Origin: an uncultured Acidobacteriota bacterium
GTDB taxonomy: Bacteria; Acidobacteriota; UBA6911; RPQK01; JAPXNP01
DNA length: 64,000 nucleotides
Reading direction: 5' to 3'
Assembly (NCBI GenBank): GCA_963823995.1
Contig: CAWGNQ010000006.1
Location: forward strand, 173,610-237,609
This document shows, in pieces, positions 2,575 through 64,000 of this stretch (its first letter is position 1; every line of letters starts with the position of its first letter). Both the position numbers and the translations under genes were made by a program. The notes beneath the pieces were generated by a model, which worked only from the letters and a program-made list of their open reading frames with translations, did not search any database and had not been told where the DNA came from.

Positions 2575-3906
2575 TCAGGTGACGTGGATTTCTCGGCGGT
2601 TCGAGAGGCGGTAGGCGCCTTCGACGAGGCCTGCGCCCCCAACCAGTCCGGCGACCACCCAGAGGTGACCCGGGTGGTCGGACAGGACCTGGAACAGGAG
2701 CGCAACCAGCGCCGCCAGACACGCCAGTACGCCCAGTCCTGAGAGCCAGCGACGGCTCCCGGTTTTCTTCGCCAGCGACCAGTTGGCGGCATTCACGGCC
2801 CCGAAGATGATGAGGAAACCGGTACTCCCGAGCGTCGAGATCGAGGAGAGGTTGGCAAGGTTGGCCAACAGCAATGATAGCGCCACCGTAATCAGGAGTC
2901 CCTCGATGTGGCGGTTCCAGACCTTTTTCTCGAGGAAGGCCGGTAGCTCGCCCTCCTTGGCGATCGTGAAGCTGAGGCGGGCCGAGCCGTAAAGGGTGGC
3001 ATTGATGGCCGAGAACGTCGAGAGCAACGCGGCGACGGCGATCAGCCGAAAACCGAATTCACCGAGAAAGGGCCGCGCGGCTGCTGCCAGCGCGTAGTCT
3101 TCTGCGCCGGCGATCTGGCTCAGGCTCAGGTTGCCCACGGTAACCATCGAAACGAGGACGTAAAGGATGATGACGAACCCCACCGCGCTGAAGTAGGCGC
3201 GGGGCAGGACCCGTTTGAAATTCCGGACATCTTGCGCCGTGTTGGCGATGAGTTCGAAGCCCTCATAGGCGACGAAGATGATCATCCCGCCTGCCAGGAG
3301 GTGCAGCGGCGGAGCCCAGGTCGGCGGAGCCAGTCGACCCGATTCGATGCCGAAGCAGCCGACACCGATGAAGAGCAGGAGGAGTGAGACCTTCGCGATC
3401 ACGACGTACGTTTCGGCCCGCCCAATGATCTCGGCGCTCAGGAGATTGAGCGAGGCTGGGAGCAGGATGGCCGCGCTGATCATGAGGTTCTGTCCCCAGG
3501 TCTGCCAGCTCTGAGGGAGGAAAGTTGCGCCGTACCCTCCGAATGCGTACGCGTAGAGTGCCACCATTACGATGTAGCTCAGCCAGAGAAGAGTATTGAG
3601 GCTGCCGGTAAAGAAATTTCCTCCGAAAGCCTGATCGAGGAAAACGACGGTGCCGCCCTGGCTCGGGTAGGTTACAGATAATCGGGCATAAGAATAGGTC
3701 GTCAGGAGGGCCACTCCGCCGGCAACCAGAAAGGCTACGGGAGTGCCCCCTCCGGCGAGCGCGACCGCGAGGCCGAGGACAGCGAAAATCCCTCCGCCGA
3801 CCATTCCTCCCACTCCGATCGCCGTCGTGGCGAGGAAGCCGATCTTTCCCTCAGCATCGCTCGTCTGTCCGCTCCAGGCGGGCCCGGCCTTCGTCTTTGC
3901 GGTCAA
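2575..3906 (-). CDS. Amino acid permease (APC superfamily)
   Basis: 443 aa with 12 predicted TM helices and the N-terminal G-rich motif (IGVGGMVGGGIFAVLG) typical of APC transporters. Confidence 0.8.
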   Translation of the reverse strand: MTAKTKAGPAWSGQTSDAEGKIGFLATTAIGVGGMVGGGIFAVLGLAVALAGGGTPVAFLVAGGVALLTTYSYARLSVTYPSQGGTVVFLDQAFGGNFFTGSLNTLLWLSYIVMVALYAYAFGGYGATFLPQSWQTWGQNLMISAAILLPASLNLLSAEIIGRAETYVVIAKVSLLLLFIGVGCFGIESGRLAPPTWAPPLHLLAGGMIIFVAYEGFELIANTAQDVRNFKRVLPRAYFSAVGFVIILYVLVSMVTVGNLSLSQIAGAEDYALAAAARPFLGEFGFRLIAVAALLSTFSAINATLYGSARLSFTIAKEGELPAFLEKKVWNRHIEGLLITVALSLLLANLANLSSISTLGSTGFLIIFGAVNAANWSLAKKTGSRRWLSGLGVLACLAALVALLFQVLSDHPGHLWVVAGLVGGAGLVEGAYRLSNRREIHVT

Positions 3907-4796: not shown

Positions 4797-4881
4797 CGAT
4801 ACTCCCTGACTGCTTTACCTTAGCGTACCGGATGCGCACGGCAATTCCTATCCAGGAAGGGTTTCGAATGAGACGGTGAGT

Positions 4882-5008
4882 AGTCCGGGCATTTTGCCCG
4901 GAACGATTCAGCGGGCTTTCAGCCTATCGAGGCCCGACTCCGGGCCTGATTACAAACAGAGCCATAGCACGGCCTGCTCACCGGACGTTCCGGGCAGAAT
5001 GCCCGGAC
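4882..5008. repeat. About 127-bp element bounded by 24-bp inverted repeats, each arm itself a hairpin
   Basis: AGTCCGGGCATTTTGCCCGGAACG at 4882-4905 is the reverse complement of CGTTCCGGGCAGAATGCCCGGACT at 4985-5008 (1 mismatch). An internal palindrome GGCCCGACTCCGGGCC lies near 4929-4944. Confidence 0.45.
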
Positions 5009-5237
5009 TGCTCTCAGTCTCAGGATGTGCGGAAGATATTCGAGGGTTCTGAATGGGTTGCCAGACCCCCACCGTTCATTCCACATACAGGGATCCGACG
5101 GGAGTCGGAGCTTCCGGCTGGAGGCCTGGCAGACAGGTGTAAAGCGTTCGTCCTTGGGCACCTGAATTCTGCACACTGGTTGAGATTCGTAAGTATTGCA
5201 TGATCGTTTCCCGAAACGGACGAAATCGCCGGTTTGC

Positions 5238-5360
5238 TCAGATCACGTGGGGTCGATCGTCATCGTGCCTGCGGCCCACGAATGAACGGGTCATCGCTAC
5301 GATTGCAGCAAGACCAACAATCGAACCGGCCAGCGTCAGCAACAGCATTCCATCGCTCAT
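5238..5360 (-). CDS. Hypothetical 40-aa hydrophobic peptide (MSDGMLLLTLAGSIVGLAAIVAMTRSFVGRRHDDDRPHVI)
   Basis: Below the ORF-track size cut-off. AAAGGAGA Shine-Dalgarno about 10 nt upstream of ATG at 5360. One TM helix followed by a charged tail. GC3 about 65%. Confidence 0.3.
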   Translation of the reverse strand: MSDGMLLLTLAGSIVGLAAIVAMTRSFVGRRHDDDRPHVI

Positions 5361-5543
5361 GATGAGTATGTCTCCTTTCTCGTGTAGTCGAACACCTTCC
5401 TATACAAGCAATGCAGGTGCCAATGCGCGGAAAGCCCTGCCGATAAGCGTATTTCCGGGTCAAAACGTCGTGGATCGCTGAGCGTACGCCGTTCCTGCAG
5501 CACCGCAGAGTGGCTTATTGAGTTGGAGCGGCAAGGTCGGAGT

Positions 5544-5577
5544 GTGGCAATGTTGCCGAACGGTGCAAATCTGCCAC
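5544..5577. promoter_or_regulatory. Nested palindrome GTGGCAATGTTGCC...TGCCAC about 190 bp upstream of the small peptide ORF
   Basis: GGCAATGTTGCC is a 12-bp perfect palindrome. The outer GTGGCA / TGCCAC arms are also complementary. Confidence 0.2.
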
Positions 5578-5755
5578 AGGAACCGGTGGATGCGACCCTC
5601 GAACAGTGGATTGAGTCGCCAGGTCTCCGTCGAGGCTTCCAGCATCCACTCCCATTACCTTGACATCGCTGAATCGGGAAGAAATTCCTCGAAGCCCAGG
5701 CGCCGCCTGACCGATCGACTCTGCTCGCAGAGGGAGGGGTCAGGGCCGAGCAGGA

Positions 5756-9502: not shown

Positions 9503-10286
9503 GATGGAGTTCTATCAGGACAGTCATTGGACACCTGAGGACCGTGTGATCCTCCGGGTCTCCCGGATCTTCGGCGAATGCGAGCTGACGATGCCGGCGG
9601 AGTTCCGTAAGAAGGTCTACGAGTACATCGAAAAGTGGAAGACCACACAGCGATTACGGCTGGCCATTCGGCGAGCGCGGGATAACGGCTGGGATACGGT
9701 CGTCGGCGACACGATGCTCAAATACCATTTGCCTCCCCAGTTCTTCTTCCTGGGTCTCCAGGAAAGCAGCTATGACCCGAAGACGATCGGTCCAAAGACT
9801 CGTTTCGGGATCGCCAAGGGAATCTGGCAATTCATCCCGGCCACGGCCCTTCGCTACAAACTGCAGGTGGGACCTCTCGTGGAGCTGCCGCGCTTCGACC
9901 CGAGAGATGAGCGCTTCACCTTCGAGAAGGCGACGGATGCTGCGGCGCGCTACATCCGCGACATTTACAATACCGAGGCGCAGGCGTCCGGACTGCTGGT
10001 CATCGCCTCCTACAACTGGGGCGAACAGAACGTCCGGAGCCTCGTCCGAAAGCTCCCGGAGAACCCCCGCGATCGGAACTTCTGGCAGCTGCTCGAGCAG
10101 TACGGCAGGAGGATTCCGACAGAGACGTATGACTACGTCTTCTACATCGTGTCGGCGGCCGTCATCGGCGAGAATCCCAAGCTGTTCGGATTCGATTTCG
10201 ACAATCCTCTCCAGACGGTCTCCAATCAGACGGACCGGCAACGCTCCGAAGTGCAGAGTCAGAAGATCCCCGACACGACCAACTGA
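9405..10286 (+). CDS. Lytic transglycosylase (SLT domain) protein; probably the C-terminal continuation of the FHA protein
   Basis: SLT motifs ESSYDP...GIAKGIWQFIPATA...ASYNWG. The coiled-coil sequence continues in this frame from about 9384 (ISRLQARVEETGDQQSQEEL), upstream of the GTG called at 9405. Confidence 0.6.
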   Translation: MEETGDQQSQEELSGYRRQQDAMVRNYDRFLDEMEFYQDSHWTPEDRVILRVSRIFGECELTMPAEFRKKVYEYIEKWKTTQRLRLAIRRARDNGWDTVVGDTMLKYHLPPQFFFLGLQESSYDPKTIGPKTRFGIAKGIWQFIPATALRYKLQVGPLVELPRFDPRDERFTFEKATDAAARYIRDIYNTEAQASGLLVIASYNWGEQNVRSLVRKLPENPRDRNFWQLLEQYGRRIPTETYDYVFYIVSAAVIGENPKLFGFDFDNPLQTVSNQTDRQRSEVQSQKIPDTTN

Positions 10287-11151: not shown

Positions 11152-12486
11152 CTACTCCAGCTGATCGAGGAAGCGGGTCACCTCGATCCGGTCTTTTTGG
11201 GCAGCGAGCGCCCTTGCCGTCCAGCCCTGGGGTGTCGCCGCATCGGGGTCGGCACCCCCTTCCAGCAGCGCTTTGACCGTTTCCAGTTGACCCTCCCACG
11301 CTGCATACATGAGGGAAGTCATCCCCTGGCGGTCGGTGAGGTCGGTCCGAGCGCCGTGCTCGAGTAGGACCTTGACGGTTTCCGTGTGGCCTGCGCCGGC
11401 CGTGGTTGCCAGGAGCGGGACGCCCTCCTTGTCTTTCCGATTCGGGTTGGCTCCCGCTTCGAGAAGTGTGCGGGCGGCGTCGCTCTGACCTTTCGACGCG
11501 GCCCAGGCGAGGGCGGTCCAGCCGTCCCGGTCCTGAGCCTCGAGTTGGGCTCCCCGCTTCAGGAGAAGTCGAATCGCCTCCGAATGTCCTCCGAGCGCGG
11601 CCCACATGAGAGCCGTTCTCCCGTCGTTGGTCCAGACGTTGACCTCGGCCTTTCGCGAGATCAACAGGTCGAGCATTTCGGTTCGGCCGTTCGAGGCGGC
11701 CAGCATGAGCGCGGTCCGGCTCTCAGCGTCCTGGATCCGCGGGTCCGCACCGTGTCCGAGCAGGACCTCGGCCGCACCTGTGTGGCCTTCCGAGGCAGTC
11801 TGCATGAGCGGAGTCCTCCCATTGGTGTCGCGTGCGTCGGGGTCGGAGCCGCCTTCGAGCAGCCGCCGGACGGATGGAGCATCGCCGGTGAGGGCCGCCC
11901 ACATCAGAGCCGACCAGTTGGCCGAGTCGACCGGGGCGACGCTCGCCCCTCGCGCGAGAAGAAGATCGATGACCTCCGAGTGACCGTTCATCGCCGCAAA
12001 GATCAGGGGAGTGCGGCCCGACGGATCGATCTCCTCGAGGCCGGCGCCATGTTCGACCAGAACTCTCACGGCATCAGCGGAGCCTGCCTCGGCGGCCCTC
12101 ATCAGGGCCGTTCTGCCGGCGCTGTCGCGGGCCTCGAGAGCTGCCCCGCGATCGAGGAGCAGGGCGACGATGTCGCCTTTGCCCAGCTCGGAGGCAAGCA
12201 GAAGGGGAGTAGCACCGTCCTTGTCCAGGACGGTCGGATCTGCCCCGGCATCGAGGAGCGCTTCGACGAGCTCACGGCCCCCCTTTTCCACGCCGAGCAT
12301 CAAGATGGTCCTCCCCTTTCCGAGCTGGAGGTTGGCGTCGGCACCGTCTTCGAGCAGCGAGACGACGGCGGCCGAATCTCCTTCCTCGGTACGGGAAACC
12401 AACTCCCGATTGACATCGGCACAAGAAATCACAAGCAGGCCGGTAGCCAGTGACAGAAAGATCGAGGAGCAGCGCTTCGGATGCAC
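11152..12486 (-). CDS. Ankyrin-repeat lipoprotein (about 12 ANK repeats)
   Basis: Signal peptide with lipobox LLVISC. Repeated G-TPLM-A--GH motifs every 33 aa. AAAGGAGGTG SD upstream of ATG. Confidence 0.8.
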   Translation of the reverse strand: MHPKRCSSIFLSLATGLLVISCADVNRELVSRTEEGDSAAVVSLLEDGADANLQLGKGRTILMLGVEKGGRELVEALLDAGADPTVLDKDGATPLLLASELGKGDIVALLLDRGAALEARDSAGRTALMRAAEAGSADAVRVLVEHGAGLEEIDPSGRTPLIFAAMNGHSEVIDLLLARGASVAPVDSANWSALMWAALTGDAPSVRRLLEGGSDPDARDTNGRTPLMQTASEGHTGAAEVLLGHGADPRIQDAESRTALMLAASNGRTEMLDLLISRKAEVNVWTNDGRTALMWAALGGHSEAIRLLLKRGAQLEAQDRDGWTALAWAASKGQSDAARTLLEAGANPNRKDKEGVPLLATTAGAGHTETVKVLLEHGARTDLTDRQGMTSLMYAAWEGQLETVKALLEGGADPDAATPQGWTARALAAQKDRIEVTRFLDQLE

Positions 12487-12553: not shown

Positions 12554-14998
12554 CTAGAACGTCGTGAGGCTGAGCGACGCCTCCGGCAGGCCCTCAGCCG
12601 TCGCCGTTAGTCTGATAGTACCAGCGTTTTTCGTCGACTCAACCACGACGAGGCATTTGCCGTGAAAGGCCTTGCGATGGTCCGCCTGAAAAGACTGGTG
12701 ACTGATCTGGCTGCCGTTGTCGACGCCGATGATCCGGCCACCGCCTTCGATCTGGAAATCCACAAGGTTGTCAGCGAGAGGAACGACCGTTCCATTTTCA
12801 TCCACGACCCGCACAGTAACGAACGCAAGATCCCTTCCGTCGGCATGAATCCGGTCACGATCCGCTTCGAGTTGCAGCGCAGCCGGGAGCCCGGCCGTCC
12901 GGATCTCGCGGACCAGGGTTTCTTCGCCGGCGACCCGGCCGATCGCCTTCAGCGTTCCCGGCACATACTTCAATCGCCACATCAGATGGAGATTGTCGGG
13001 CCCCCGCTTGCGAACTCCCTGGGACTTTCCGTTGAGGAACAGTTCGACTTCCTCGCAGTTGGTATACGCCCAGACGTCGATCGTGTCGCCGTTCTCCCAG
13101 TTCCAGTGGGGAAAGACGTGAAGAACAGGCGTCTCGGTCCACTCGCTTCGAAACAGGTAATAGGAATCCTTGGGGAAACCTGCCAGGTCGACGATGCCGA
13201 AGTAGGAACTCCGTGCGGGCCACGAATAGGGGGTGGGTTCCCCGAGATAGTCGAAGCCGGTCCATATGAACTGTCCCGAAAGGAAGTCATGCTTTTGGAT
13301 CACCCTCCAGGTTGCTTCGAGCGTCGAACCCCATGGGACCCGGCAATTGTCGTACGCGGAGCAGGAGTAGTCGGGATTTCCCTTGAAGGGCCGGTTACCG
13401 CGGGCCGGCCAGATTCGAACCTCGTCGGAGGGCATGTCATAACTGCCGCGCGTGGCCAGAGCGGAACAGGTCTCCGTCGCGATGAATTTCTGATCGGGGA
13501 AATTCTCGAGGAATTTTGGATAGTCCTCGTGATGATAGTTGAGGCCGATGAGGTCCAGGGCGCCTGAGCGAACCAGTGAATTGCTCGGCTCAGGATTGTT
13601 CATCGCAGCCGTAATCGGCCGAGTCGTATCCAGTTCCCGAACGATCCCCGCCAACTCCCGAGCGATCGAAACACCGGATTCATCCCACTGCTCCCTCACC
13701 TCGTTGCCGATGCTCCAGATCGTCACACTTGGGTGATTTCGGTCGCGGAGGACCATATCCTCGAGGTCCCGCTTGTGCCATTCGTCCCAGTCCAGGTGGT
13801 AGTCGTACTCCGTTTTGCCCATCGCCCACATATCGAAGGCTTCGTCCATCACGATGAGTCCCATTCGATCGCAGAGTTCGAGCAACTCCGGTGCTGGAGG
13901 ATTATGGGATGTGCGAAGCGCATTGACTCCCATCCCCTTGAGGATTTCGATCTGCCGCTCCAGTGCCCGGGTGTGGATCGCAGCTCCCAGACAGCCGAGG
14001 TCATGGTGATCGCAGACTCCGTTGATCTTCATGTTCTTGCCGTTGAGGAAGAAGCCTTTGTCGCGATCGAATGAGAATTCCCGGATCCCGAACGGTGTTT
14101 GGTATTCGTCGCAGACCCGCTGGTCCCGGAGGCATGCCACCTGTGACACTGCTTTGTAGAGATTGGGCTCGTCGATCGACCAGAGGCTCGGTGACGCCAC
14201 GTGGAAATCCTGGGAGAACACGGCCGTCGAACCCGCTGTTATGTCCTTATCCGCGGAAACGCGAGTGACCTCCTTGCCGTTCGGGTCGTAGAGGATCGTG
14301 GTCAGCTGAACCCCTTGATCACTCTCCGCCGCGTTCTTCACCGTGGTCGCGACATGCACGGTTGCCGAGTCGGTTGCGATGGTCGGAGTCGTCACGAAGG
14401 TGCCCCAATGATCGACGTGGACCTTTTCGGTCACCTCGAGCCACACGTTGCGATAGATCCCGGAGCCTGAATACCAGCGGGAATTCGGCTGCTCGGAGTT
14501 GTCGACCCTGACCGCCAGCACGTTGGCCGTGCTGCCGAGGTGCAGATGGGGAGTCAATTCATAGCGAAACGAGCTGTATCCGTACGGGCGTTTGCCGAGA
14601 TAGGCTCCGTTGATCCAGACCTCGCTGTTGCGATAGACCCCGTCGAAGTCGATGAAGACGAGGCGGTTCGCATCGCTTTCCGGGAGCGTGAAGGTCTTCC
14701 GATACCATCCAATCCCCCCGGGCAGGGCCCCACCACCGGGAGTGGCAGGATTGCTCTCGCTGAATTCTCCCTCGATGCTCCAGTCATGAGGGACGTCGAG
14801 GGTTCTCCAGTTGGAATCATCGAAGTCCGACGCCTGGGCGTCCGTGACGTCTCCCAGATGGAATCTCCATCCGGCTCCGAAGTTGGTGATCTGGCGTGAA
14901 CTTTCGGTGGACGGCTTTCCTGGGGGCACACAGGAGCCGATGAGCAGCGAAATGAGGATGATCATCCCGCTCAATCCTGTTTTCTGTGTCATAACCAT
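12554..14998 (-). CDS. Glycoside hydrolase family 2 (beta-galactosidase/beta-mannosidase/beta-glucuronidase type), lipoprotein
   Basis: GH2 sugar-binding, Ig-like and TIM-barrel regions, including the catalytic NEV segment WSIGNEVRE. Start taken at MVMTQKTGLSGMIILISLLIGSC (lipoprotein signal). ORF track starts at a GTG at 15052. Confidence 0.85.
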   Translation of the reverse strand: MVMTQKTGLSGMIILISLLIGSCVPPGKPSTESSRQITNFGAGWRFHLGDVTDAQASDFDDSNWRTLDVPHDWSIEGEFSESNPATPGGGALPGGIGWYRKTFTLPESDANRLVFIDFDGVYRNSEVWINGAYLGKRPYGYSSFRYELTPHLHLGSTANVLAVRVDNSEQPNSRWYSGSGIYRNVWLEVTEKVHVDHWGTFVTTPTIATDSATVHVATTVKNAAESDQGVQLTTILYDPNGKEVTRVSADKDITAGSTAVFSQDFHVASPSLWSIDEPNLYKAVSQVACLRDQRVCDEYQTPFGIREFSFDRDKGFFLNGKNMKINGVCDHHDLGCLGAAIHTRALERQIEILKGMGVNALRTSHNPPAPELLELCDRMGLIVMDEAFDMWAMGKTEYDYHLDWDEWHKRDLEDMVLRDRNHPSVTIWSIGNEVREQWDESGVSIARELAGIVRELDTTRPITAAMNNPEPSNSLVRSGALDLIGLNYHHEDYPKFLENFPDQKFIATETCSALATRGSYDMPSDEVRIWPARGNRPFKGNPDYSCSAYDNCRVPWGSTLEATWRVIQKHDFLSGQFIWTGFDYLGEPTPYSWPARSSYFGIVDLAGFPKDSYYLFRSEWTETPVLHVFPHWNWENGDTIDVWAYTNCEEVELFLNGKSQGVRKRGPDNLHLMWRLKYVPGTLKAIGRVAGEETLVREIRTAGLPAALQLEADRDRIHADGRDLAFVTVRVVDENGTVVPLADNLVDFQIEGGGRIIGVDNGSQISHQSFQADHRKAFHGKCLVVVESTKNAGTIRLTATAEGLPEASLSLTTF

Positions 14999-19613: not shown

Positions 19614-20918
19614 TCACTTACTTTCGATTGTGACATTCACGGTAAGGTTCATTGGATCGGGTTTAACTTCCATGCTCATCTTCGTTCCGGGGGTGGCCCG
19701 GAGCTTGAGTCTCGAGATCGTCTCGAGGAAAGTGTCCAGATAAGTGCTGTCGTAGACCTGCCCCGGTTCGAGTTTCCAGGCCGCTTTGAGCCTTCTTGCG
19801 TCCTCGTCGGGCCATCCCCTGATCACGAGTTTGCCCATCTGGTACGTCGGGCCTTCGCTCAGAGTGAACGAATAGCTCACCGTCGCATCGTCCTTCGAGA
19901 AACTTGCCTGTGCACGGGTCTGAAGCGCAAAGTGCCCCTTCCTCCCATAGGAGTCCCGGATTTTCTGGAGGCCCTCGTCGAGCTTGACTCCGTTGGCGAT
20001 CTCACCCTGTCGCATCCCCAGCAACTCGTCCAGTTCCGAAGACGAGAAGAGGGTGTTCCCCACCCAGTCGGCTCCGGCCCAGTGAAATTGAGTTCCTTCC
20101 GTTACCGGAACGCTCAGCGTGACGCCCGAGCCGTCATCGGCGGAGGCAGGCTCCGCTGTCGCGGTTCCGAACGAGGCCTGCAGGCATCCGCGTTCGCGGT
20201 AGATGGGAAGCAGGCTCAACCTGAAAAATCCTGCCGCGGAGGTGCGCGAGTACCGCCGACCGATCAGTTGTTCCGACGCCTTGACCAGCGTGTCCGGTTG
20301 GACCTGCTGCGCCCCGGGAAATTCGAAGCCTGCGATCTTGTAGACTTCGCTGGTGACTTCGAACAGAACGAGCACCTTCCCCGTGTTCGTGTCCACGAAG
20401 TCCGTGTGGGAGACTTCGGCCGTGATCCCGCGCACTTTCAGCAGTTCTTCGAGGGCGGCGGAAGCGGTGTCCAAGGCGGCTCCGGATGCGGGCAACTCCC
20501 CCGAGTACATGGGCAGCCGGGCGCGCAAGGCGGCGTTCAATTCGGACTCGGGGATACCGACGAAATTGTCAAAGACGCAGCGTCGGAACGGAGCGGCTTC
20601 CGTAACTTCGAAGGTGACGGCCATGCGTCCATCCCTCGTCTCGTAGTGGTAACGGAGGCTGCTGAAGAAGCCGCTCTCTCCGAGGCGTGCCGCGGCGGCC
20701 TCGACGTCTTCGGGGGTGATCGGTTCGGCAAGACGCAGGCCCGACGAGATTGCCACCTGGGTTTGTTCGAGCCGGTTCAGCCCGCTGATCTCGAGCCGAC
20801 CCAACACCACGGGCTCCCCGAGCAAGTGCATCGAGAGAAGACACCCGAGTCCGAAGATGTTGAGGAGAACTGGTTTCGTGAAGCTACGGGATCGCTTGCG
20901 CGTTTCACGAACTTTCAT
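19614..20918 (-). CDS. Secreted POTRA-domain repeat protein (BamA/TamA-like N-terminal region, no beta-barrel)
   Basis: Start at 20918 has AAGGAG 8 nt upstream and a signal peptide. About four beta-alpha-alpha-beta-beta POTRA-like modules. The C-terminus lacks the aromatic terminal motif of outer-membrane barrels. Confidence 0.55.
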   Translation of the reverse strand: MKVRETRKRSRSFTKPVLLNIFGLGCLLSMHLLGEPVVLGRLEISGLNRLEQTQVAISSGLRLAEPITPEDVEAAAARLGESGFFSSLRYHYETRDGRMAVTFEVTEAAPFRRCVFDNFVGIPESELNAALRARLPMYSGELPASGAALDTASAALEELLKVRGITAEVSHTDFVDTNTGKVLVLFEVTSEVYKIAGFEFPGAQQVQPDTLVKASEQLIGRRYSRTSAAGFFRLSLLPIYRERGCLQASFGTATAEPASADDGSGVTLSVPVTEGTQFHWAGADWVGNTLFSSSELDELLGMRQGEIANGVKLDEGLQKIRDSYGRKGHFALQTRAQASFSKDDATVSYSFTLSEGPTYQMGKLVIRGWPDEDARRLKAAWKLEPGQVYDSTYLDTFLETISRLKLRATPGTKMSMEVKPDPMNLTVNVTIESK

Positions 20919-34892: not shown

Positions 34893-35816
34893 GTGGGTGC
34901 GAGGGACGAATGGACGGCCGTGCGGGGCAGCATCCGGGGGCGAAACCAGGGCTCGGGAACGATCGGATTCTATCGTCTGATGGATAACCTGGTACGAGCT
35001 CTTCCTCGAGAGTCCTGGGTCGTCGATATCGGTGCCGGACCGGGGAGTTTCGACTATGCCTCAACATCGGCTCACGTGCTGGCCGTTGACTTGGAGTTCG
35101 CGGATACTCGCCGACACAAGGACGGTTCGGTCCGGGCTCCCGCTAATTGGCTCCCGTTGGGGGATGCTGTCGCGGACGTCGTCGTCTGCAACCACAGTCT
35201 GGAGCACTTTCCCGAACCTGGAAGGGCACTGAATGAGATCGATCGAGTCCTGAAACCGGGCGGATTCTGCTGGATTGCTGTCCCCGATGGACGCTCGGTC
35301 GACGACCGGCTGTATCGTTTTCTCTTCGCCGGAGGAGGACACCTGAACCGCTTCAGCATCGATTCGTTCCTGCGGACGCTCAATTCGGCGACGGAGCTGA
35401 ATCTGGTTTCCTTCAAGGATCTGTACAGCGGTTTCGTTTTTCTGGTGCCCCCGACGAAACAGAGGCTGCAATACTTTCCGCAGCCTGCGCGAGCTATCTT
35501 CTCGATCGCACCCGCCCGGATGGTTCGCTTTTCCGCCCGCTGGTTCGCCTACCTCACCCGAAGAATCGATCGACTTCTGGGCTCGCACACGAGCCGTTAC
35601 GGATGGGGCTTCGTGCTGCAGAAGTCGACGGTCGGCGCAGCGGTTCGTCGGATGCCGGACTACGTCAATGTCTGCGTCGGCTGCGGAGCGGGGCATCCCG
35701 CCGAGTCGCTGATGCCCGACCGCGGGTACCTGGGTTTCGTCCGCTCCTATCGATGTCCGTCATGCGGAGCGAGGAACCTCTTTTCCGATGGCCCGGGTTG
35801 CCGGAAGGACGAGTGA
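34893..35816 (+). CDS. Class I SAM-dependent methyltransferase with C-terminal Cys4 zinc-ribbon
   Basis: Motif I VVDIGAGPGSF, post-I acidic residue, motif VVVCNHSLEHF (Methyltransf_11-like). C-terminal CxxC...CxxC. True start may be the internal Met at 34980. Confidence 0.7.
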   Translation: MGARDEWTAVRGSIRGRNQGSGTIGFYRLMDNLVRALPRESWVVDIGAGPGSFDYASTSAHVLAVDLEFADTRRHKDGSVRAPANWLPLGDAVADVVVCNHSLEHFPEPGRALNEIDRVLKPGGFCWIAVPDGRSVDDRLYRFLFAGGGHLNRFSIDSFLRTLNSATELNLVSFKDLYSGFVFLVPPTKQRLQYFPQPARAIFSIAPARMVRFSARWFAYLTRRIDRLLGSHTSRYGWGFVLQKSTVGAAVRRMPDYVNVCVGCGAGHPAESLMPDRGYLGFVRSYRCPSCGARNLFSDGPGCRKDE

Positions 35817-35824
35817 GGGGCTCT

Positions 35825-35864
35825 CACGGACGAACACGGGCGGACACGGACTCACACGGACGGC
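35825..35864. repeat. Four tandem 10-bp repeats CACGG(A/G)C-N3, immediately after the methyltransferase stop
   Basis: cacggacgaa / cacgggcgga / cacggactca / cacggacggc. The exact 10-bp period places the repeats on one helical face. Confidence 0.5.
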
Positions 35865-35886
35865 GTCCAAGTTCCAGATTCCCGCA

Positions 35887-35925
35887 AATCGAGAATCTCA
35901 AATCGAAATTCCCAAATTCTGTCAA
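35887..35925 (+). promoter_or_regulatory. AT-rich motif AAATCGAGAATCTCAAATCGAAATTCCCAAATTC upstream of pruA; same motif family as upstream of the second aldehyde dehydrogenase
   Basis: Aligns with the minus-strand sequence ATCGAAAATCTGAAATTTATCGAAAATCTCAAATATTTG at 63330-63368. The first 16-mer differs at 2 positions. Confidence 0.4.
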
Positions 35926-36007
35926 GTCCTGGTCAGAAGTTGTCACCCTGATGGTTTCGAGAACGCGAAGAATCGACGAACCCGGAACGTAGCAGATGTC
36001 AAGTCCG

Positions 36008-36057
36008 GTCCTCCCGTCCCCCCGTCCTCCTTCCAATCCTCCGGTCCCTTCCCTATA
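36008..36057 (+). promoter_or_regulatory. Pyrimidine-rich tract with repeated CCUCC (anti-Shine-Dalgarno-like) motifs in the pruA 5' leader
   Basis: gtcctcccgtccccccgtcctccttccaatcctccggtcccttccc lies 45-95 nt upstream of the AAGGAGAG SD. It could pair with and sequester the SD. Confidence 0.3.
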
Positions 36058-36103
36058 CTCGGCCTGAGGGAGATCCGAAGCATCCAAAGCAAGGAGAGAC
36101 GAA

Positions 36104-37738
36104 ATGAGAAACGGAATCGCTGCCGTTCCGATGGCTGCGAACGAACCGATTCGTGAGTACCGTCCCGGCACTGCGGAACGAGAAAGTCTGAAACGGACCA
36201 TCGCCCAGTTGAAGGGCAAGACGATCGAGATCCCTCTGATCATCGGGGGAAGGGAAGTCCGGACCGACAGAATCGCTGAGTGCCGGATTCCCCATAAACA
36301 CGGACATCTGCTGGCGACCTATCATCAGGCCGGCCCGGACGAAGTCGCACTTGCCATCGAAGAGAGCCGGCGGGCCTGGGAGAGCTGGTCCCAGGTAGCG
36401 TGGGAGGATCGCGTGGCCATTTTTCGCCGAATGGCCGTCCTCCTGGCCGGGCCCTATCGTGACCTGCTCAACGCTTCGACCATGCTCGGGCAGAGCAAAA
36501 CCGTGTTTCAGGCGGAAATCGACTCGGCCTGCGAGCTGATCGATTTCTTCAACTTCAACTGCAGCTATCTTGCGCAGATCTACGGAGATCAGCCCCCTTA
36601 CAGTTCGACGGGCACCTGGAATCAGCTTGAATATCGACCACTGGAAGGTTTTGTTTTTGCCGTGACTCCGTTCAATTTCACGTCGATTGCCGGGAACCTG
36701 CCGACGTCGCCCGCGCTCATGGGTAACGTCGTGCTCTGGAAACCGGCCTCCTCGGCTGTCTACTCGGCCTACTTTCTGGCCCAGCTCTTCCGGGAGGCGG
36801 GGATGCCCGACGGTGTCATCAACTTCATTCCCGGACCTGGATCCAAGGTCGGTCCGCCTGTCCTGGAAAGCCCGCAGCTCGCCGGCATCCATTTCACCGG
36901 TTCGACGGCTGTTTTTCAGCAGATGTGGACCACCGTCGGTCGCAATATCCGTCAGTACCGCGCCTACCCACGCATCGTGGGCGAAACGGGAGGCAAGGAC
37001 TATATCTTCGTGCACGAATCGGCGGACCCGGACGAGACGGTGACGGCTCTCGTGCGTGGTGCCTTCGAGTACCAGGGGCAGAAGTGCTCCGCCGCATCGC
37101 GCGCCTATGTTCCCGACTCGATCTGGCCTCGAATCAAGGAGAAATACCTGGCGGCGGTCGATTCCATCACGATGGGCGACATCGAGGATTTTACCCACCT
37201 TATGGGCGCCGTCATCGACGAAGAGGCATTCGGAAATATCACCGCCTACATCGATTTTGCAGCCCAAAGTCCGGAGGCGGAAATCATCACGGGCGGAAAG
37301 TACGATGATGCGGTCGGATACTTCATCGAACCCACGACGATCGTTACGACCAACCCACAGTTCAAAACGATGGTGGAGGAAATCTTCGGACCGGTCTTGA
37401 CGATCTTCGTCTACCAGGCCGATCAGTACGAAGCCGCGCTGCGAGTGTGCGACCGGACGAGTCCGTACGCCCTGACGGGCGCCATCTTTGCCCGAGACCG
37501 GTCGGCAATCGTTCTTGCGCGGGACATCCTGACTCACAACGCCGGCAATTTCTATATCAACGACAAGCCGACCGGTGCTGTGGTCGGCCAGCAGCCTTTC
37601 GGCGGGGCCAGAGCTTCCGGGACGAACGACAAGGCCGGCTCGGCCATGAACCTGCTTCGCTGGGCAAGCGTACGGACGATCAAGGAGAACTTTTTGCCTC
37701 CCAAGGATTACCGGTATCCGCACATGGGCGCGGAATGA
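36104..37738 (+). CDS. pruA: L-glutamate gamma-semialdehyde (1-pyrroline-5-carboxylate) dehydrogenase, ALDH superfamily
   Basis: 544 aa. ALDH motifs (FTGSTAVF, catalytic Cys in GQKCSAASR, ETGGKD). Length and N-terminal region match the P5CDH (RocA/PruA) group. AAGGAGAG SD present. Confidence 0.85.
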   Translation: MRNGIAAVPMAANEPIREYRPGTAERESLKRTIAQLKGKTIEIPLIIGGREVRTDRIAECRIPHKHGHLLATYHQAGPDEVALAIEESRRAWESWSQVAWEDRVAIFRRMAVLLAGPYRDLLNASTMLGQSKTVFQAEIDSACELIDFFNFNCSYLAQIYGDQPPYSSTGTWNQLEYRPLEGFVFAVTPFNFTSIAGNLPTSPALMGNVVLWKPASSAVYSAYFLAQLFREAGMPDGVINFIPGPGSKVGPPVLESPQLAGIHFTGSTAVFQQMWTTVGRNIRQYRAYPRIVGETGGKDYIFVHESADPDETVTALVRGAFEYQGQKCSAASRAYVPDSIWPRIKEKYLAAVDSITMGDIEDFTHLMGAVIDEEAFGNITAYIDFAAQSPEAEIITGGKYDDAVGYFIEPTTIVTTNPQFKTMVEEIFGPVLTIFVYQADQYEAALRVCDRTSPYALTGAIFARDRSAIVLARDILTHNAGNFYINDKPTGAVVGQQPFGGARASGTNDKAGSAMNLLRWASVRTIKENFLPPKDYRYPHMGAE

Positions 37739-37760: not shown

Positions 37761-37815
37761 TATTCGATTCGGCGAACTCACAAATTGAAAATCCCAGACG
37801 CCCTCCGTCCTTGCC
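37761..37815 (+). promoter_or_regulatory. Third copy of the composite element (ATTCGATTCGG...CAAATTGAAAATCCC followed by CCCTCCGTCCTTGCC) between pruA and the ybaK-like gene
   Basis: Shares the AAAT(C/T)GAAAATCCC and CTCCGTCC motifs with the elements near 35900 and 63330-63620. Confidence 0.35.
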
Positions 37816-37881
37816 TGCCGGGCCCGAGAGGCGAATAATGGGTGCATCAATCTCCCGAATGCCCACGCAAAGGAGGTCTCT

Positions 37882-38358
37882 ATGCCTTGGACACAGGTCA
37901 AAGAGTTCCTTGACAAGCAGAGCATTCCCTACGTCACGATCTCACATTCTCCCGCCTACACCGCACAGGGAATTGCCGCTTCTGCCCATGTGAAGGGCAG
38001 GGAACTCGCAAAGACAGTCATCATCAAGGTGAACGGTAAGCTGGCCATGGCGGTCCTGCCGGCGCCCTTTAAGGTCAACTTCGACCGGCTCAAAGAGGCT
38101 CTCGGCGACCCCGGGGCCACGCTCGCTGCGGAACAGGAGTTCGAACATCTCTTTCCGGATTGCGAACTTGGGGCCATGCCTCCCTTCGGCAACCTTTACG
38201 GTATGGATGTCTACGTCGCCAAGAGCCTGACCGAGGACGAGGAGATCGCCTTCAATGCAGGATCCCATTCGGAGCTCGTCCGGATGGCCTATCGCGACTT
38301 CGAGCGCCTCGCAAAGCCGAAAGTGCTGAGCTTCACGACCCACCCGGGTTCCGGGTAG
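37882..38358 (+). CDS. YbaK/ProX-family aminoacyl-tRNA deacylase domain protein
   Basis: 158 aa with the conserved YbaK/EbsC fold signature (...KTVIIK...GAMPPFG...). Confidence 0.75.
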   Translation: MPWTQVKEFLDKQSIPYVTISHSPAYTAQGIAASAHVKGRELAKTVIIKVNGKLAMAVLPAPFKVNFDRLKEALGDPGATLAAEQEFEHLFPDCELGAMPPFGNLYGMDVYVAKSLTEDEEIAFNAGSHSELVRMAYRDFERLAKPKVLSFTTHPGSG

Positions 38359-61729: not shown

Positions 61730-63317
61730 TTAGGACCTCGTCCAGGCTCCGTCGACCAAGCGCCAGATGCCGCGCTCATTCTCGTCGCGCAGCTCAACGG
61801 GCAGGAGGCCGACCGGGCAGTCCTGGTAACAGACAGGCCTCAGAAACCGGAAGACGGCCGCGGTGCCGACGGATGTTTGTTTGGAGTCGGTGGTTGCCGG
61901 GTAAGGTCCGCCGTGCTGCATGGCGTGACCCACCTCGACGCCGGTCGGGAAGCCGTTGAAGATCAGGCGTCCGACCTTTTCGCGCAGGATACGGACCAGG
62001 TCGGAATAGGTCTGGAGTTCCTCGCCGGTCGCGTGGACCGTGGCGGTCAGGTTGCCCTCGAGAGATTCGGCCACCTCGAGCATTTCGTTCCTGTCCTCGC
62101 AGGTTACGAGAAGTGACGACGGCCCGAACACCTCTCCGGACAGCACGGAGTCCTCACGGAACGTACCGGCATCGGTCATCATCAGAATCGATGCGGCTTC
62201 GGTCTTCTCCGCGTCCGGTTTTCCCGGCGATTGCCCGACGATCCTCACGCCGGCCCGCGAGCAGAAGCTCGAAGACTCCCCGTTCGAAGGCCTCCCGGAT
62301 GCCCGAGTGCAGCATCGTTCCAGGGTTGGAGCCGTCCAGTGCGGAGCGGAGCGCCTCGAGGAAGAGGTCGAGGGAAGGACCCTTCAGTGCGACTACGAGA
62401 CCAGGGTTGGTGCAGAACTGACCGACGCCGAGTGTCACGGACTGGACCAAACCCCTGGCGATACGTTCGGCGTCCGTCTTCAGAACGGCCGGAAGCAGGA
62501 ACACCGGATTGATGCTCCCCATTTCCGCGTACACGGGAATCGGCTCGGAGCGCTGGGCGGCGGCGTCGAACAGCGCCCGGCCGCCGGCTTGAGAACCGGT
62601 GAAGGCCACGGCCTTCACAGCAAAATGGGATGCTAGTCGGAGGCCCACTTCATGGGACGCACCGTGCAGCATGGAGAAGGTCCCCTCCGGCATGCCGTGT
62701 CGGTGCCCGGCCTCGGCGATGGCTTTGGCCACCAGTTCCGAAGTTCCCGGGTGTGCGGGGTGCGCCTTGCAGACGACCGGGTTTCCCGCGGCCAGGGCCG
62801 ACGCCGTATCACCGCCGGCCACGGAGAAGGCGAGTGGGAAATTGCTGGCACCGAAGACCGCCACGGGGCCGATCGGGATCAGCATGCGGCGGAGATCCGG
62901 TTTGGGGATGGGCTTGCGCGCGGGGTCTCCGTGATCGATGCGGGCGCCCACCATCGATCCTTCATCGATAAGATCGGCGAACATACGGATCTGATTCACC
63001 GTCCGGGTCCGCTCACCCTGGAGGCGGCCTGCAGGAAGACCGCTCTCTTCCGAGGCTCGCTGGATCAGCGCCTCTCCGAGTCCTTCGATCTCCGAGGCCA
63101 TCTGCCGCAGGAACGCGCTGCGGATTCCAGGATCGGCGAGTTTCGGACTGGCGAAGGCCGACCCGGCGAGCTCGAGTGCGCGATCGGTCTCGGCTTCCGT
63201 GGCCTCGATGAAGGCCGGTTCAAGTTCTCGGCCGTTCGACGGGTTCACGGCACGGATCGTCTTGGATCCTTCTCCGCTCCATTGATGACCGATGAGGTTC
63301 TTTCCCGTAAGCGTCAT
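61730..63317 (-). pseudogene. NAD(P)-dependent aldehyde dehydrogenase of the alpha-ketoglutarate semialdehyde dehydrogenase (KGSADH) type, interrupted by a frameshift near 62238-62246
   Basis: N-terminal two-thirds in ORF 62154..63317 (catalytic FTGSQAGG..., EMGSINP). The C-terminal third (EVFGPSSLLVTCED...LEGNLTATVH) continues in ORF 61730..62248 in a different frame. Confidence 0.6.
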
Positions 63318-63336
63318 GACAGCTCTCCAAATATTT

Positions 63337-63366
63337 GAGATTTTCGATAAATTTCAGATTTTCGAT
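63337..63366 (-). promoter_or_regulatory. AT-rich motif (ATCGAAAATCTGAAATTTATCGAAAATCTC on the minus strand) immediately upstream of the KGSADH gene
   Basis: Direct repeat ATTTTCGAT x2 on the plus strand. Shares the motif family with the pruA upstream region. Confidence 0.4.
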
Positions 63367-63457
63367 CCGGAGTGAAAGCCTCAGAAATCCCGAATCCCAT
63401 ATGAGAACTGAGCCACCCCCGACCGCGGCGAGACCGCAACCAGCACTCCGGAATCCC

Positions 63458-63625
63458 GGTCCTCCTACTCCCGTCCTTCCGTTCTCCCGTCCCATCGGTT
63501 ACGGCGAACCAGCAAAGAACAAGCAGGATGCATATCCCACCCGTTCTCCCGTCCTCACGTCCTCCGGTTCTCCCGTCCTCCGGCCCACCCGTTCTCCGGT
63601 CCTCTGTTTCCCCCGTTCCCCCTCG
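63458..63625. repeat. Array of C-rich repeats GTTCTCC(C/G)GTCC (4 or more copies) in the FAH-KGSADH intergenic region
   Basis: Copies at about 63481, 63543, 63567 and 63590. Related to the CTCCCGTCC repeats at 36008-36057 and 37801-37815. Confidence 0.45.
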
Positions 63626-63653
63626 TGACCCAAGTCGAAAATCGAAGATTCTC

Positions 63654-64000
63654 CTACGTTCCTACCACATTGATGAGCGTGCCGATCGGTTCGATCCTGA
63701 TGCGAATTTCGTCGTCGACCCGGAGGCTGAAATCGGAGGGCGGCACGATCCCGGTGCCCGTCATGAGAAGACAACCCCTGGGAAATTCCAGCTCCCGATA
63801 GAGATACTCGACCAGTTCCGTCGGCGTGCGCTTCATCTGAGACAGCTGGGTGGAATCCTGAAAGGCCATCTGATCCCCGCGCCGGATCTCCAAGACGATC
63901 TCGGTCTCCGGAGGCAGCTCCTCTTCGGCCAACAGTATCCCCGGCCCCAGTGCGCTACTACCATCGTATATCTTGGCCTGGGGTAAATACAGGGGATTGT
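63654..64000 (-). CDS. Fumarylacetoacetate hydrolase (FAH) family protein, C-terminal fragment; the 5' end lies outside the window
   Basis: The frame stays open to the window edge (...KIYDGSSALGPGILLAEEELPPETEIVLEIRRGDQ...GTGIVPP...IEPIGTLINVV), matching the FAH-family C-terminus. Confidence 0.65.
   Translation of the reverse strand, partial: NPLYLPQAKIYDGSSALGPGILLAEEELPPETEIVLEIRRGDQMAFQDSTQLSQMKRTPTELVEYLYRELEFPRGCLLMTGTGIVPPSDFSLRVDDEIRIRIEPIGTLINVVGT

Follow-up and report, generated by a model that had tools for sequence, protein, structure and literature searches.

The 64,000-nt stretch analysed here (the window) belongs to the genome of an uncultured Acidobacteriota bacterium (contig CAWGNQ010000006.1, assembly GCA_963823995.1), and three of its intergenic regions carry a recurring AT-rich motif accompanied by C-rich or G-rich repeats. 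The regions are located upstream of a pruA-type aldehyde dehydrogenase (ALDH) gene, a YbaK/tRNA-editing gene, and a second, KGSADH-type ALDH gene. Our analysis suggested that these regions probably carry lineage-specific simple-sequence-repeat clusters, that is, mosaics of short head-to-tail arrays. Between close relatives, arrays of this type appear, disappear, grow, and change orientation, and they land in spacers beside unrelated genes. The window sequence is contained in the 911-kb metagenome contig contig_15880 of ENA ERZ25039500, and with the 10 kb to the left of the window about 74 kb of the source genome was examined. A protein search found the nearest named homologues of the window proteins in metagenome-assembled genomes (MAGs) labelled Acidobacteriota. 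The GC content computed over the window was approximately 60%, instead of the 65% given in a preliminary description of the motif.

The gene assignments at the three sites were backed by Pfam, and the arrays were called with Tandem Repeats Finder (TRF), which gave periods of 7/14, 8, and 10 nt at these sites. The features are as follows; sequences of minus-strand features are given in the sense of the ALDH gene.

35825–35863, plus strand: 10-nt tandem array of CACGGAC+NNN (TRF, period 10, 3.8 copies), beginning 9 nt past the stop codon of the upstream methyltransferase gene.
35885–35919, plus strand: AT-rich heptad array, pruA copy, CAAATCG AGAATCT CAAATCG AAATTCC CAAATTC (TRF, period 14, 2.4 copies at 35885–35917).
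35920–36006, plus strand: stretch between the 10-nt direct repeats TGTCAAGTCC (35920–35929 and 35997–36006; sequence and alignment); its counterpart was absent in the aligned relatives, and it may be an insertion or duplication.
36007–36030, plus strand: C-rich 8-nt array GGTCCTCC CGTCCCCC CGTCCTCC, abutting the pruA −35 box (TRF, period 8, at 36008–36027); relatives had a shorter, non-repetitive C-rich stretch at this site of the alignment.
36031–36059, plus strand: predicted pruA core promoter, −35 box TTCCAA (36031–36036), 17-nt spacer, −10 box TATACT (36054–36059), based on conservation and consensus; it lies outside the repeat family and fixes the position of the family relative to transcription.
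36104–37738, plus strand: pruA-type ALDH gene (Pfam).
37777–37810, plus strand: weak AT-rich variant CTCACAAATTGAAAATCCCA (37777–37796) and one CCCTCCGTCC unit (37801–37810), directly preceding the predicted ybaK −35 box (sequence).
37882–38358, plus strand: YbaK/tRNA-editing gene (Pfam).
63317, minus strand: start of the KGSADH-type ALDH gene (Pfam).
63329–63368, minus strand: AT-rich heptad array, ALDH copy, GGATCGA AAATCTG AAATTTA TCGA AAATCTC AAATATT (motif scan), running up to the Shine-Dalgarno sequence GGAGAG (63323–63328), itself 5 nt before the ATG at 63317.
63384–63398, minus strand: two G-rich heptads, GGGATTC GGGATTTC (sequence).
63455–63493, minus strand: proximal G-rich 8-nt array GGGACGGG AGAACGGA AGGACGGG AGTAGGAGGACCGGG (TRF, 63468–63492, period 8, 3.1 copies), which reads as C-rich CTCCCGTC on the plus strand.
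63514–63549, minus strand: local hairpin of 15 pairs, including many G-U pairs (centroid structure), on the 3' edge of the distal array, with only a weak U-tract behind it and a weak terminator-like hit.
63536–63622, minus strand: distal G-rich 8-nt array of about 8–10 units (AGGACGGG / AGAACCGG / AGGACGTG and others; TRF, period 8, 8.1 copies, and period 24, 3.6 copies), with super-periods of 16 and 24 nt; one period-8 call spans 63540–63604.
63634–63653, minus strand: partial AT-rich unit in inverted orientation, GAGAATCTTCGATTTTCGAC, immediately following the stop codon of the FAA-hydrolase gene.
63654 (gene end), minus strand: fumarylacetoacetate-hydrolase-family (FAA-hydrolase) gene, the upstream neighbour of the KGSADH-type ALDH gene, with its stop codon at 63654–63656 (Pfam).

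The 16-mer ATCGARAATCTSAAAT of the AT-rich motif was found as exact copies at 35888–35903 on the plus strand and at 63351–63366 and 63333–63348 on the minus strand, with an additional copy with two mismatches at 35902–35917 on the plus strand. The motif of the preliminary description is thus confirmed, and each of the two ALDH loci holds two tandem units (35888–35917 and 63333–63366) oriented as the downstream gene. With up to three mismatches allowed, five matches were obtained against 1.58 expected, a count equalled or exceeded in one of 100 dinucleotide shuffles; for the 14-mer core, none of 100 shuffles reached the observed count of five. The variant copy reported upstream of ybaK was also located, but it is weak: it differs from the consensus 16-mer at four positions, a level that also occurs inside coding sequence, and 14 of its 16 positions agree with the second unit at pruA. 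Likewise, the C-rich repeats said to stand beside each copy form 8-nt arrays at both ALDH genes, whereas ybaK has only the single CCCTCCGTCC unit. The CACGGAC+NNN array, although it lies inside the interval reported in that description, had gone undescribed there.

Closer inspection of the sites showed that the AT-rich motif is part of a heptad array of the form AAATC+NN. The mosaics also include octamers of the (C/T)CCGTCCT type (CCCGTCCT and variants), CACGGAC+NNN decamers, and GGGATT(C/G) heptads; written as tandem sequences, array units take the forms (AAATCGAAAATCTC)n, (CACGGACNNN)n, and (AGGACGGG)n. The elements were confined to three of approximately 25 intergenic regions of the window and were absent from coding sequence. 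As single words, YCCCGTCC and CACGGAC were not over-represented in the window, and the signal lies in their clustering only. A scan of strand composition for single-strand C-rich or G-rich tracts did not tell the arrays apart from ordinary sequence. The geometry of the AT-rich motif differed between the two ALDH genes: the unit step is 14 nt at pruA and 18 nt at the KGSADH-type gene, and the distance from the end of the motif to the ATG is 186 and 11 nt, respectively. The pruA array lies approximately 112–146 nt upstream of the predicted −35 box, whereas the other touches a Shine-Dalgarno sequence in a probably intercistronic spacer.

A contig scan with PruA yielded only relatives of at most 68% identity from many phyla, which were too distant for footprinting; the 16-mer was found in none of them. 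Closer relatives were obtained by protein search and contig look-ups (compared loci are denoted by L numbers). For pruA, these were L082, L083, and L144 (86% PruA identity), L145 (87%, with the same methyltransferase neighbour), and L084 (77%), and the local gene order was common to the window and four of the five. A sigma-70-like pruA core promoter was retained in all five, as CTTCCA(A/T)TCC, 17 nt, and TATACTCG in the 86–87% relatives and as TTGAAC-17-TATACT in L084. None of the five carried the AT-rich, decamer, or 8-nt arrays upstream of pruA. The same was observed at ybaK: the predicted promoter TTGCCY-17-AATAAT (37811–37839) was retained in all three relatives carrying the gene, L082 and L144 among them, and the variant motif just upstream of it was kept in none. 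Since the relatives have the promoters but not the arrays, the arrays at pruA and ybaK represent species-specific additions upstream of a conserved predicted promoter. The loci also differed in gene content: both the window and L145 have a class I methyltransferase gene (34893–35816 in the window) that separates pruA from a DinB-family gene, whereas L082, L083, and L144 lack it, and there the DinB gene directly precedes pruA.

At the KGSADH-type ALDH gene, conservation of the motif was mixed, with one of two lineages keeping it. In L092 and L093 (78% ALDH identity), the spacer between the FAA-hydrolase and ALDH genes measures 57 nt and carries no arrays, compared with 336 nt in the window. In L090 and L091 (81% ALDH identity), the ALDH gene is preceded by GGGATT(G) heptads, then by GTCCGTG-N3 in three copies, and then by AAATCGA in three copies. 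The last array, AAATCGA AAATCGT AAATCGG according to TRF, stands at the place of the AT-rich array of the window and likewise ends at the ribosome-binding site. At the place of GGGATTC GGGATTTC, L090 has GGGATTGGGGATTTT together with (CCCAATC)x4.3 in inverted orientation. The decamer array of L090/L091, located at the ALDH gene, shares a 19-nt exact match in reverse orientation with the decamer array that the window carries at pruA. Thus, the modules move, flip, and change in number independently of each other. Simple-sequence arrays behave in this way, in contrast to operators with a fixed site, structured RNAs, and mobile elements with collinear copies.

In L090 (positions 1–1500; GCA_037388625.1, JARRKA010000070.1), an IS3-family transposase gene with the inverted ends TGAAGTTGCCCCG...GTGGACA was found inserted in the loop between the inverted (CCCAATC)x4.3 and (GATTGGG)x2 heptad arrays. 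This gene takes the place of the hydrolase gene that precedes ALDH in the other relatives.

The ALDH side of the window could also be compared with L094, a 4.9-kb short-read contig from another run that was reached via a DUF1080 neighbour and is 99.86% identical to the window. The AT-rich array and the proximal 8-nt array were unchanged in L094, and therefore they are not an artefact of long-read assembly. The two sequences differed at position 62272, where the window has an extra A (CTCGAAGAC versus CTCGAGAC in L094) that breaks the KGSADH-type ALDH into an ORF of 387 aa and a C-terminal part in another frame. Since L094 encodes an intact ALDH of 528 aa, the extra A is most likely a long-read homopolymer error and not a sign of a pseudogene.

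The preliminary description had favoured a shared transcription-factor site or a shared leader RNA, with possible co-regulation of proline- and pentose-derived semialdehyde oxidation, and it had named loss of the motif from orthologous upstream regions as an outcome that would argue for a non-regulatory repeat family. This loss was observed at pruA (five of five relatives, despite the conserved promoter) and at ybaK (three of three), and also in the ALDH spacer of L092/L093. Neither the unit spacing nor the position is that of an operator with fixed geometry, as the pruA copy stands far upstream of the −35 box and the ALDH copy at a ribosome-binding site in an operon spacer. In other organisms, the same array occurs beside unrelated genes, 3' ends included. 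A shared transcription-factor site for the two ALDH genes is therefore quite improbable, even though both catabolic genes have the motif upstream in their own orientation, L090 retains a related array before ALDH, and pruA is flanked on either side by AT-rich heptad arrays at L025, a distant Acidobacteriota locus. The pruA flanks of L025 are not special, as arrays occur in many spacers of that locus. Analogies with CodY, Fur, IHF, PhoB, MraZ, and integrase arm sites were set aside because of misfits in spacing, symmetry, or taxon.

With respect to transcripts, the arrays lie upstream of the predicted promoters at pruA and ybaK, and hence the motif at these genes is probably not in the leader, contrary to what had been proposed, and would lie outside the mRNA. 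At the KGSADH-type ALDH gene, where a sigma-70 scan of the spacer found no promoter, they are probably intercistronic. In favour of a structured leader RNA or riboswitch common to the genes, the ALDH spacer has the local hairpin, and the pruA spacer has G-rich arrays that are complementary to C-rich ones. However, an Rfam search of the spacers gave nothing at the gathering score and only noise at E ≤ 5, the folds of two whole spacers were no more stable than those of shuffled sequences (z = −0.34 and +0.06), and the motif is not conserved in relatives. We consider this explanation extremely improbable.

Another suggestion of the preliminary description, a small dispersed repeat family of the repetitive extragenic palindrome (REP) or miniature inverted-repeat transposable element (MITE) type, came nearer to the truth, but mosaics of short head-to-tail arrays are neither REP- nor MITE-like. 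REP elements and bacterial interspersed mosaic elements (BIMEs), as well as MITEs, resemble the elements of the window in being short, dispersed, intergenic, mosaic, and able to lengthen operon spacers. On the other hand, the copies, with units that are direct repeats of 7–10 nt, share no palindromic unit like the hairpin-forming imperfect palindromes of about 20–40 nt that characterize REP/BIME sequences, and the terminal inverted repeats, target-site duplications, and collinear copies expected of MITEs were also lacking. A non-autonomous MITE-like element inserted into three spacers would account for the long ALDH spacer, for the inverted partial AT-rich unit at the far end of the ALDH element (63634–63653 as against 63329–63368), and for the direct repeat TGTCAAGTCC that brackets approximately 67 nt absent from the relatives. 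It would also fit with L094, which stops inside the element, as assemblies often do at repeats. Nevertheless, the copies differ in the order, orientation, and number of modules, share no clear terminal inverted repeats or target duplications, and are nearly identical over at most about 35 nt between any two of them, and the IS3 element of L090 is an insertion within the arrays, not one of their components. An origin as a mobile element is therefore improbable.

To find similar arrays in other genomes, a strict tandem pattern with 30 specified bases over both AT units was run against a metagenome collection and matched four contigs of 48–59% GC. In these contigs, (CAAATCGAAAATCT)n arrays of up to 20 heptads occupy spacers upstream or downstream of unrelated genes, which encode an ECF sigma factor/kinase, a GFO_IDH oxidoreductase, a histidine kinase, and a TPR protein. 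According to TRF analysis of L086–L088, other 7–8-nt arrays adjoin the heptad array in L087 and L088; L089 carries an inverted AT-rich partner of the heptad array. The locus L025, from a 'Ca. Sulfomarinibacteraceae' MAG of 62% GC, is very dense in AT-rich heptad arrays: within 21 kb, four spacers (744–883, 3648–3799, 9673–9760, and 11633–11681) together hold six of them, the arrays on both sides of pruA included. Its units are AAATCCG, AATTTCG (7.6 copies), GAATTCG (5.6 copies), AGTTTTG, AACTCAA, and others, and two of the arrays form an inverted pair, ATTTCGG/AAATCCG. Six heptad arrays were also found in L076. In L084 (CP070717.1), one composite repeat, consisting of three copies of the 14-nt unit GTGAGGCTGCGCTG followed by TGACTGAGCGGAACTGYCGCGC, occurs in inverted orientation in both spacers around a mandelate-racemase-family gene (11636–11817 and 13380–13500), and the first spacer also holds 8.5 copies of the 8-nt unit CACCCGGT. 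A separate 60-nt repeat is present in L084 at 19730–19873 (2.4 copies, 98% identical).

The presence of such arrays is a patchy trait: a scan for heptad arrays in 96 loci found none in 68 of them. Among 86 pruA-centred loci (L002–L084, L144, L145, and the window), seven from Acidobacteriota and Bacteroidota have arrays that start no more than 200 nt after the pruA stop codon, with periods of 7–14 nt and beginning 3–35 nt past the stop; a rough estimate of the expectation is 3–4 loci per spacer. This mild enrichment is explicable by the known preference of such repeats for gene ends, and we do not read it as a pruA-specific link.

We also searched viral contigs for the arrays. The 24-mer of the AT-rich array had no matches there. 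The AAATC-N2 pattern in four copies gave at least 120 matches, and each of its two permuted controls also gave at least 120. CACGGAC-N3 in three copies was found in 37 viral-contig loci (L095–L131, IMG/VR, 38–73% GC), compared with 6 and 6 for two permuted 7-mers. The spacers were unequal in 23 of 35 distinct arrays, and about one-third of the arrays lie in a short spacer 10–50 nt upstream of an ORF start on the same strand. The downstream genes were unrelated and, by inspection, belonged to no common family. Among flanking units not forced by the search, GGAC was kept best, and the core was kept only modestly better than the spacers.

These results bear on a further explanation, in which an abundant protein that binds nucleic acids would recognize the successive array units as its sites; a nucleoid-associated protein, an omega-type ribbon-helix-helix protein, or an RNA-binding protein acting near start codons could be such a protein. 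The arrays would then form a diffuse global layer, not one specific to ALDH genes, with the cores AAATC, CACGGAC/GGAC, and CCGTCC under selection. Such an explanation would fit with the conserved core and variable spacer letters of every array type, with the excess and position of the viral CACGGAC-N3 arrays, and with the occurrence of an identical 14-nt AT unit in unrelated lineages. IHF/HU-type or RNA-binding partners have been proposed for similar arrays (PMC2700814, PMC4679880). Yet the genes downstream of the viral arrays are unrelated, and the unforced flanking units differ little in the retention of core and spacer. Moreover, AAATC-N2 and both of its permuted controls alike gave at least 120 matches, the orientation of the arrays relative to genes varies, and the arrays are dispensable in close relatives. 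Overall, this explanation appears unlikely. In a broader form, which we regard as decidedly unlikely, conserved nucleic-acid-binding proteins common to Acidobacteriota, other phyla, and their phages would find their binding sites lined up in the arrays, with the cores AAATC, CACGGAC, and GGACG/CCGTCC spaced at 7, 10, and 8 nt, respectively.

The motif strings had no matches in the literature search other than primers and sequences of no relation, and a description of such arrays in Acidobacteriota was not found. Among known systems, the short tandemly repeated repetitive (STRR) heptamers of cyanobacteria, reportedly described by Mazel and coworkers in 1990, are one class to be compared. Another is that of long simple sequence repeats (LSSRs). 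As summarized in PMC4679880 after Mrazek et al. (2007), LSSRs with 5–11-nt units are mostly intergenic, have clustered units and a patchy phylogeny, are most commonly heptamers, and have been proposed to originate by slippage; that account lists them mainly from Cyanobacteria, Burkholderia, Xanthomonas, and Actinobacteria. Like LSSRs and STRRs, the arrays of the window consist of head-to-tail units of 7–10 nt with several unit types per spacer and a patchy distribution, although the units differ from the classic STRR1–3 units.

The G-rich heptamers GGGAATC of Xanthomonas and GGGGA(C/T)T of Nostoc are scattered and non-coding, located about 50 nt or less from gene starts or stops, often in inverted pairs, highly variable between close relatives, and adjacent to genes of no common functional class (Rehm et al., 2015; PMC4692102). 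The Nostoc unit is found in L090 as (GGGGATT)x4.3, and the window has the similar GGGATTC GGGATTTC. However, the window contains only two GGGATT units; its other G-rich units are 8 nt long, with irregular G-tracts and few canonical four-tract G-quadruplex motifs, and AT-rich heptads cannot form G-quadruplexes. The intergenic heptamer TAACTGA of marine Beggiatoaceae, Cyanobacteria, and Bacteroidetes precedes the start codons of unrelated genes by a few nucleotides, in arrays of two to six units oriented as the gene, and it is common to distant lineages without a known transfer mechanism (MacGregor, 2015; PMC4679880). The ALDH copies of the window and of L090 similarly abut the ribosome-binding site. 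The unit sequence is different, however, the ALDH gene of the window has a normal Shine-Dalgarno sequence, and only one of the three copies stands beside a start codon.

The multicopy sequences of Geobacter metallireducens include TCTCCGTS[Y] in three copies as inverted pairs, MTYCTGA in five, and GGACCGG in four. They are species-specific (absent from G. sulfurreducens) and consist of tandem 7–9-nt units located in spacers, where they form oppositely oriented pairs a variable distance apart, with insertion sequence (IS) elements inserted nearby; the authors read them, without a test, as sites of a global regulator, IHF/HU (Aklujkar et al., 2009; PMC2700814). The TCTCCGTSY unit is close in sequence to the (T)CTCCCGTCC unit of the window, which we note as a resemblance only and not as homology. 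In none of the kinds compared so far do the genes beside the repeats belong to a common class. Simple sequence repeats are also known from phase variation in host-adapted pathogens, where they are located in promoters or 5' leaders and their unit number can tune expression (e.g., PMC12721329); they have 1–5-nt units at surface-antigen genes, and the AGAT repeats of Moraxella uspA2, as cited in PMC4679880, are an example. In contrast, the neighbours in the window are housekeeping catabolic genes, and the two assemblies showed no variation in unit number.

The arrays of the window also bear some likeness, which may serve as a lead only, to contiguous 7-bp operator units: AATCTCA and AATCGAA are one or two letters off the heptad WATCACW. 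The omega repressor of inc18 plasmids of Firmicutes binds arrays of this heptad, direct or inverted, upstream of promoters. It would offer a model of the way in which a heptad array could act if a protein binds it. That system differs in belonging to Firmicutes plasmids, and neither an omega-like gene nor a partition system was seen here.

Taken together, head-to-tail units within the 5–11-nt range were found beyond chance (TRF and shuffles) at several unlinked non-coding sites, and close relatives differ in whether they carry them, in how many units, and in which orientation, which places them with the intergenic LSSR/STRR-like arrays. Judging from the literature on bacterial 5–11-nt repeats, replication slippage and recombination from one array to another would create and alter the arrays, which would be retained wherever they are tolerated, namely in the spacers close to gene ends. 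At the KGSADH-type ALDH gene, this would place an A/U-rich unstructured stretch against the ribosome-binding site, inside a former 57-nt operon spacer. At pruA and ybaK, it would leave repeat DNA upstream of predicted sigma-70-type promoters, with the pruA C-rich array abutting the −35 box. Any effect of the arrays on neighbouring genes is probably incidental and local.

Several observations weigh against the interpretation as simple-sequence-repeat mosaics. Two of the three array-bearing spacers precede genes of the ALDH superfamily, for which a post hoc estimate gives a chance of about 1%. Furthermore, an AAATCGA array abutting the ALDH ribosome-binding site is kept in L090/L091 (81% ALDH identity), and the array may therefore have a local effect at this gene. 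Slippage alone would not explain why an identical 14-nt unit occurs in unrelated lineages, which points to selection on the core words, and the roughly 6-fold excess of CACGGAC-N3 in viral contigs, mostly with unequal spacers, likewise suggests selection on the core. In addition, unit numbers over the ALDH-side arrays were equal in the two assemblies of this population, and the wider dispersal in this organism is inferred from three spacers in the approximately 74 kb examined together with other genomes.

Elsewhere in the window, two 37-nt inverted arms, 89% complementary and 80 nt apart, were found at 4869–5022, in a surrounding region (4797–5755) without a convincing ORF. Each arm forms a small hairpin by itself (TCCGGGCAnnnTGCCCGGA). 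The predicted RNA fold of 4869–5022 has an energy of −98 kcal/mol compared with −59 in shuffled sequences (z = −8.9), and no Rfam family matched at the gathering score. Possible identities of the element are a non-coding RNA, a repeat made of paired hairpins, and a mobile element of small size.

When a genome is rich in repeats, a motif that stands out at two functionally similar genes can be simple-sequence-repeat DNA and not the signal of a regulon, and comparison with close relatives settles the matter quickly. Arrays of this kind were first described in cyanobacteria more than 30 years ago, and our results add uncultivated Acidobacteriota to the bacteria known to carry intergenic arrays of heptamers, octamers, and decamers. 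If the arrays are indeed sites of conserved binding proteins common to these bacteria, other phyla, and phages, what seems to be junk repeats would act as a global and portable layer that controls transcription or translation. This would explain both the identical units in unrelated genomes and the enrichment of CACGGAC-N3 just upstream of phage genes. Two handles are available: the AAATCGA/AAATCTC unit that recurs in unrelated lineages and the CACGGAC-N3 array over-represented in viral contigs. If a binding protein were found for either of them, the role of the arrays would become testable.

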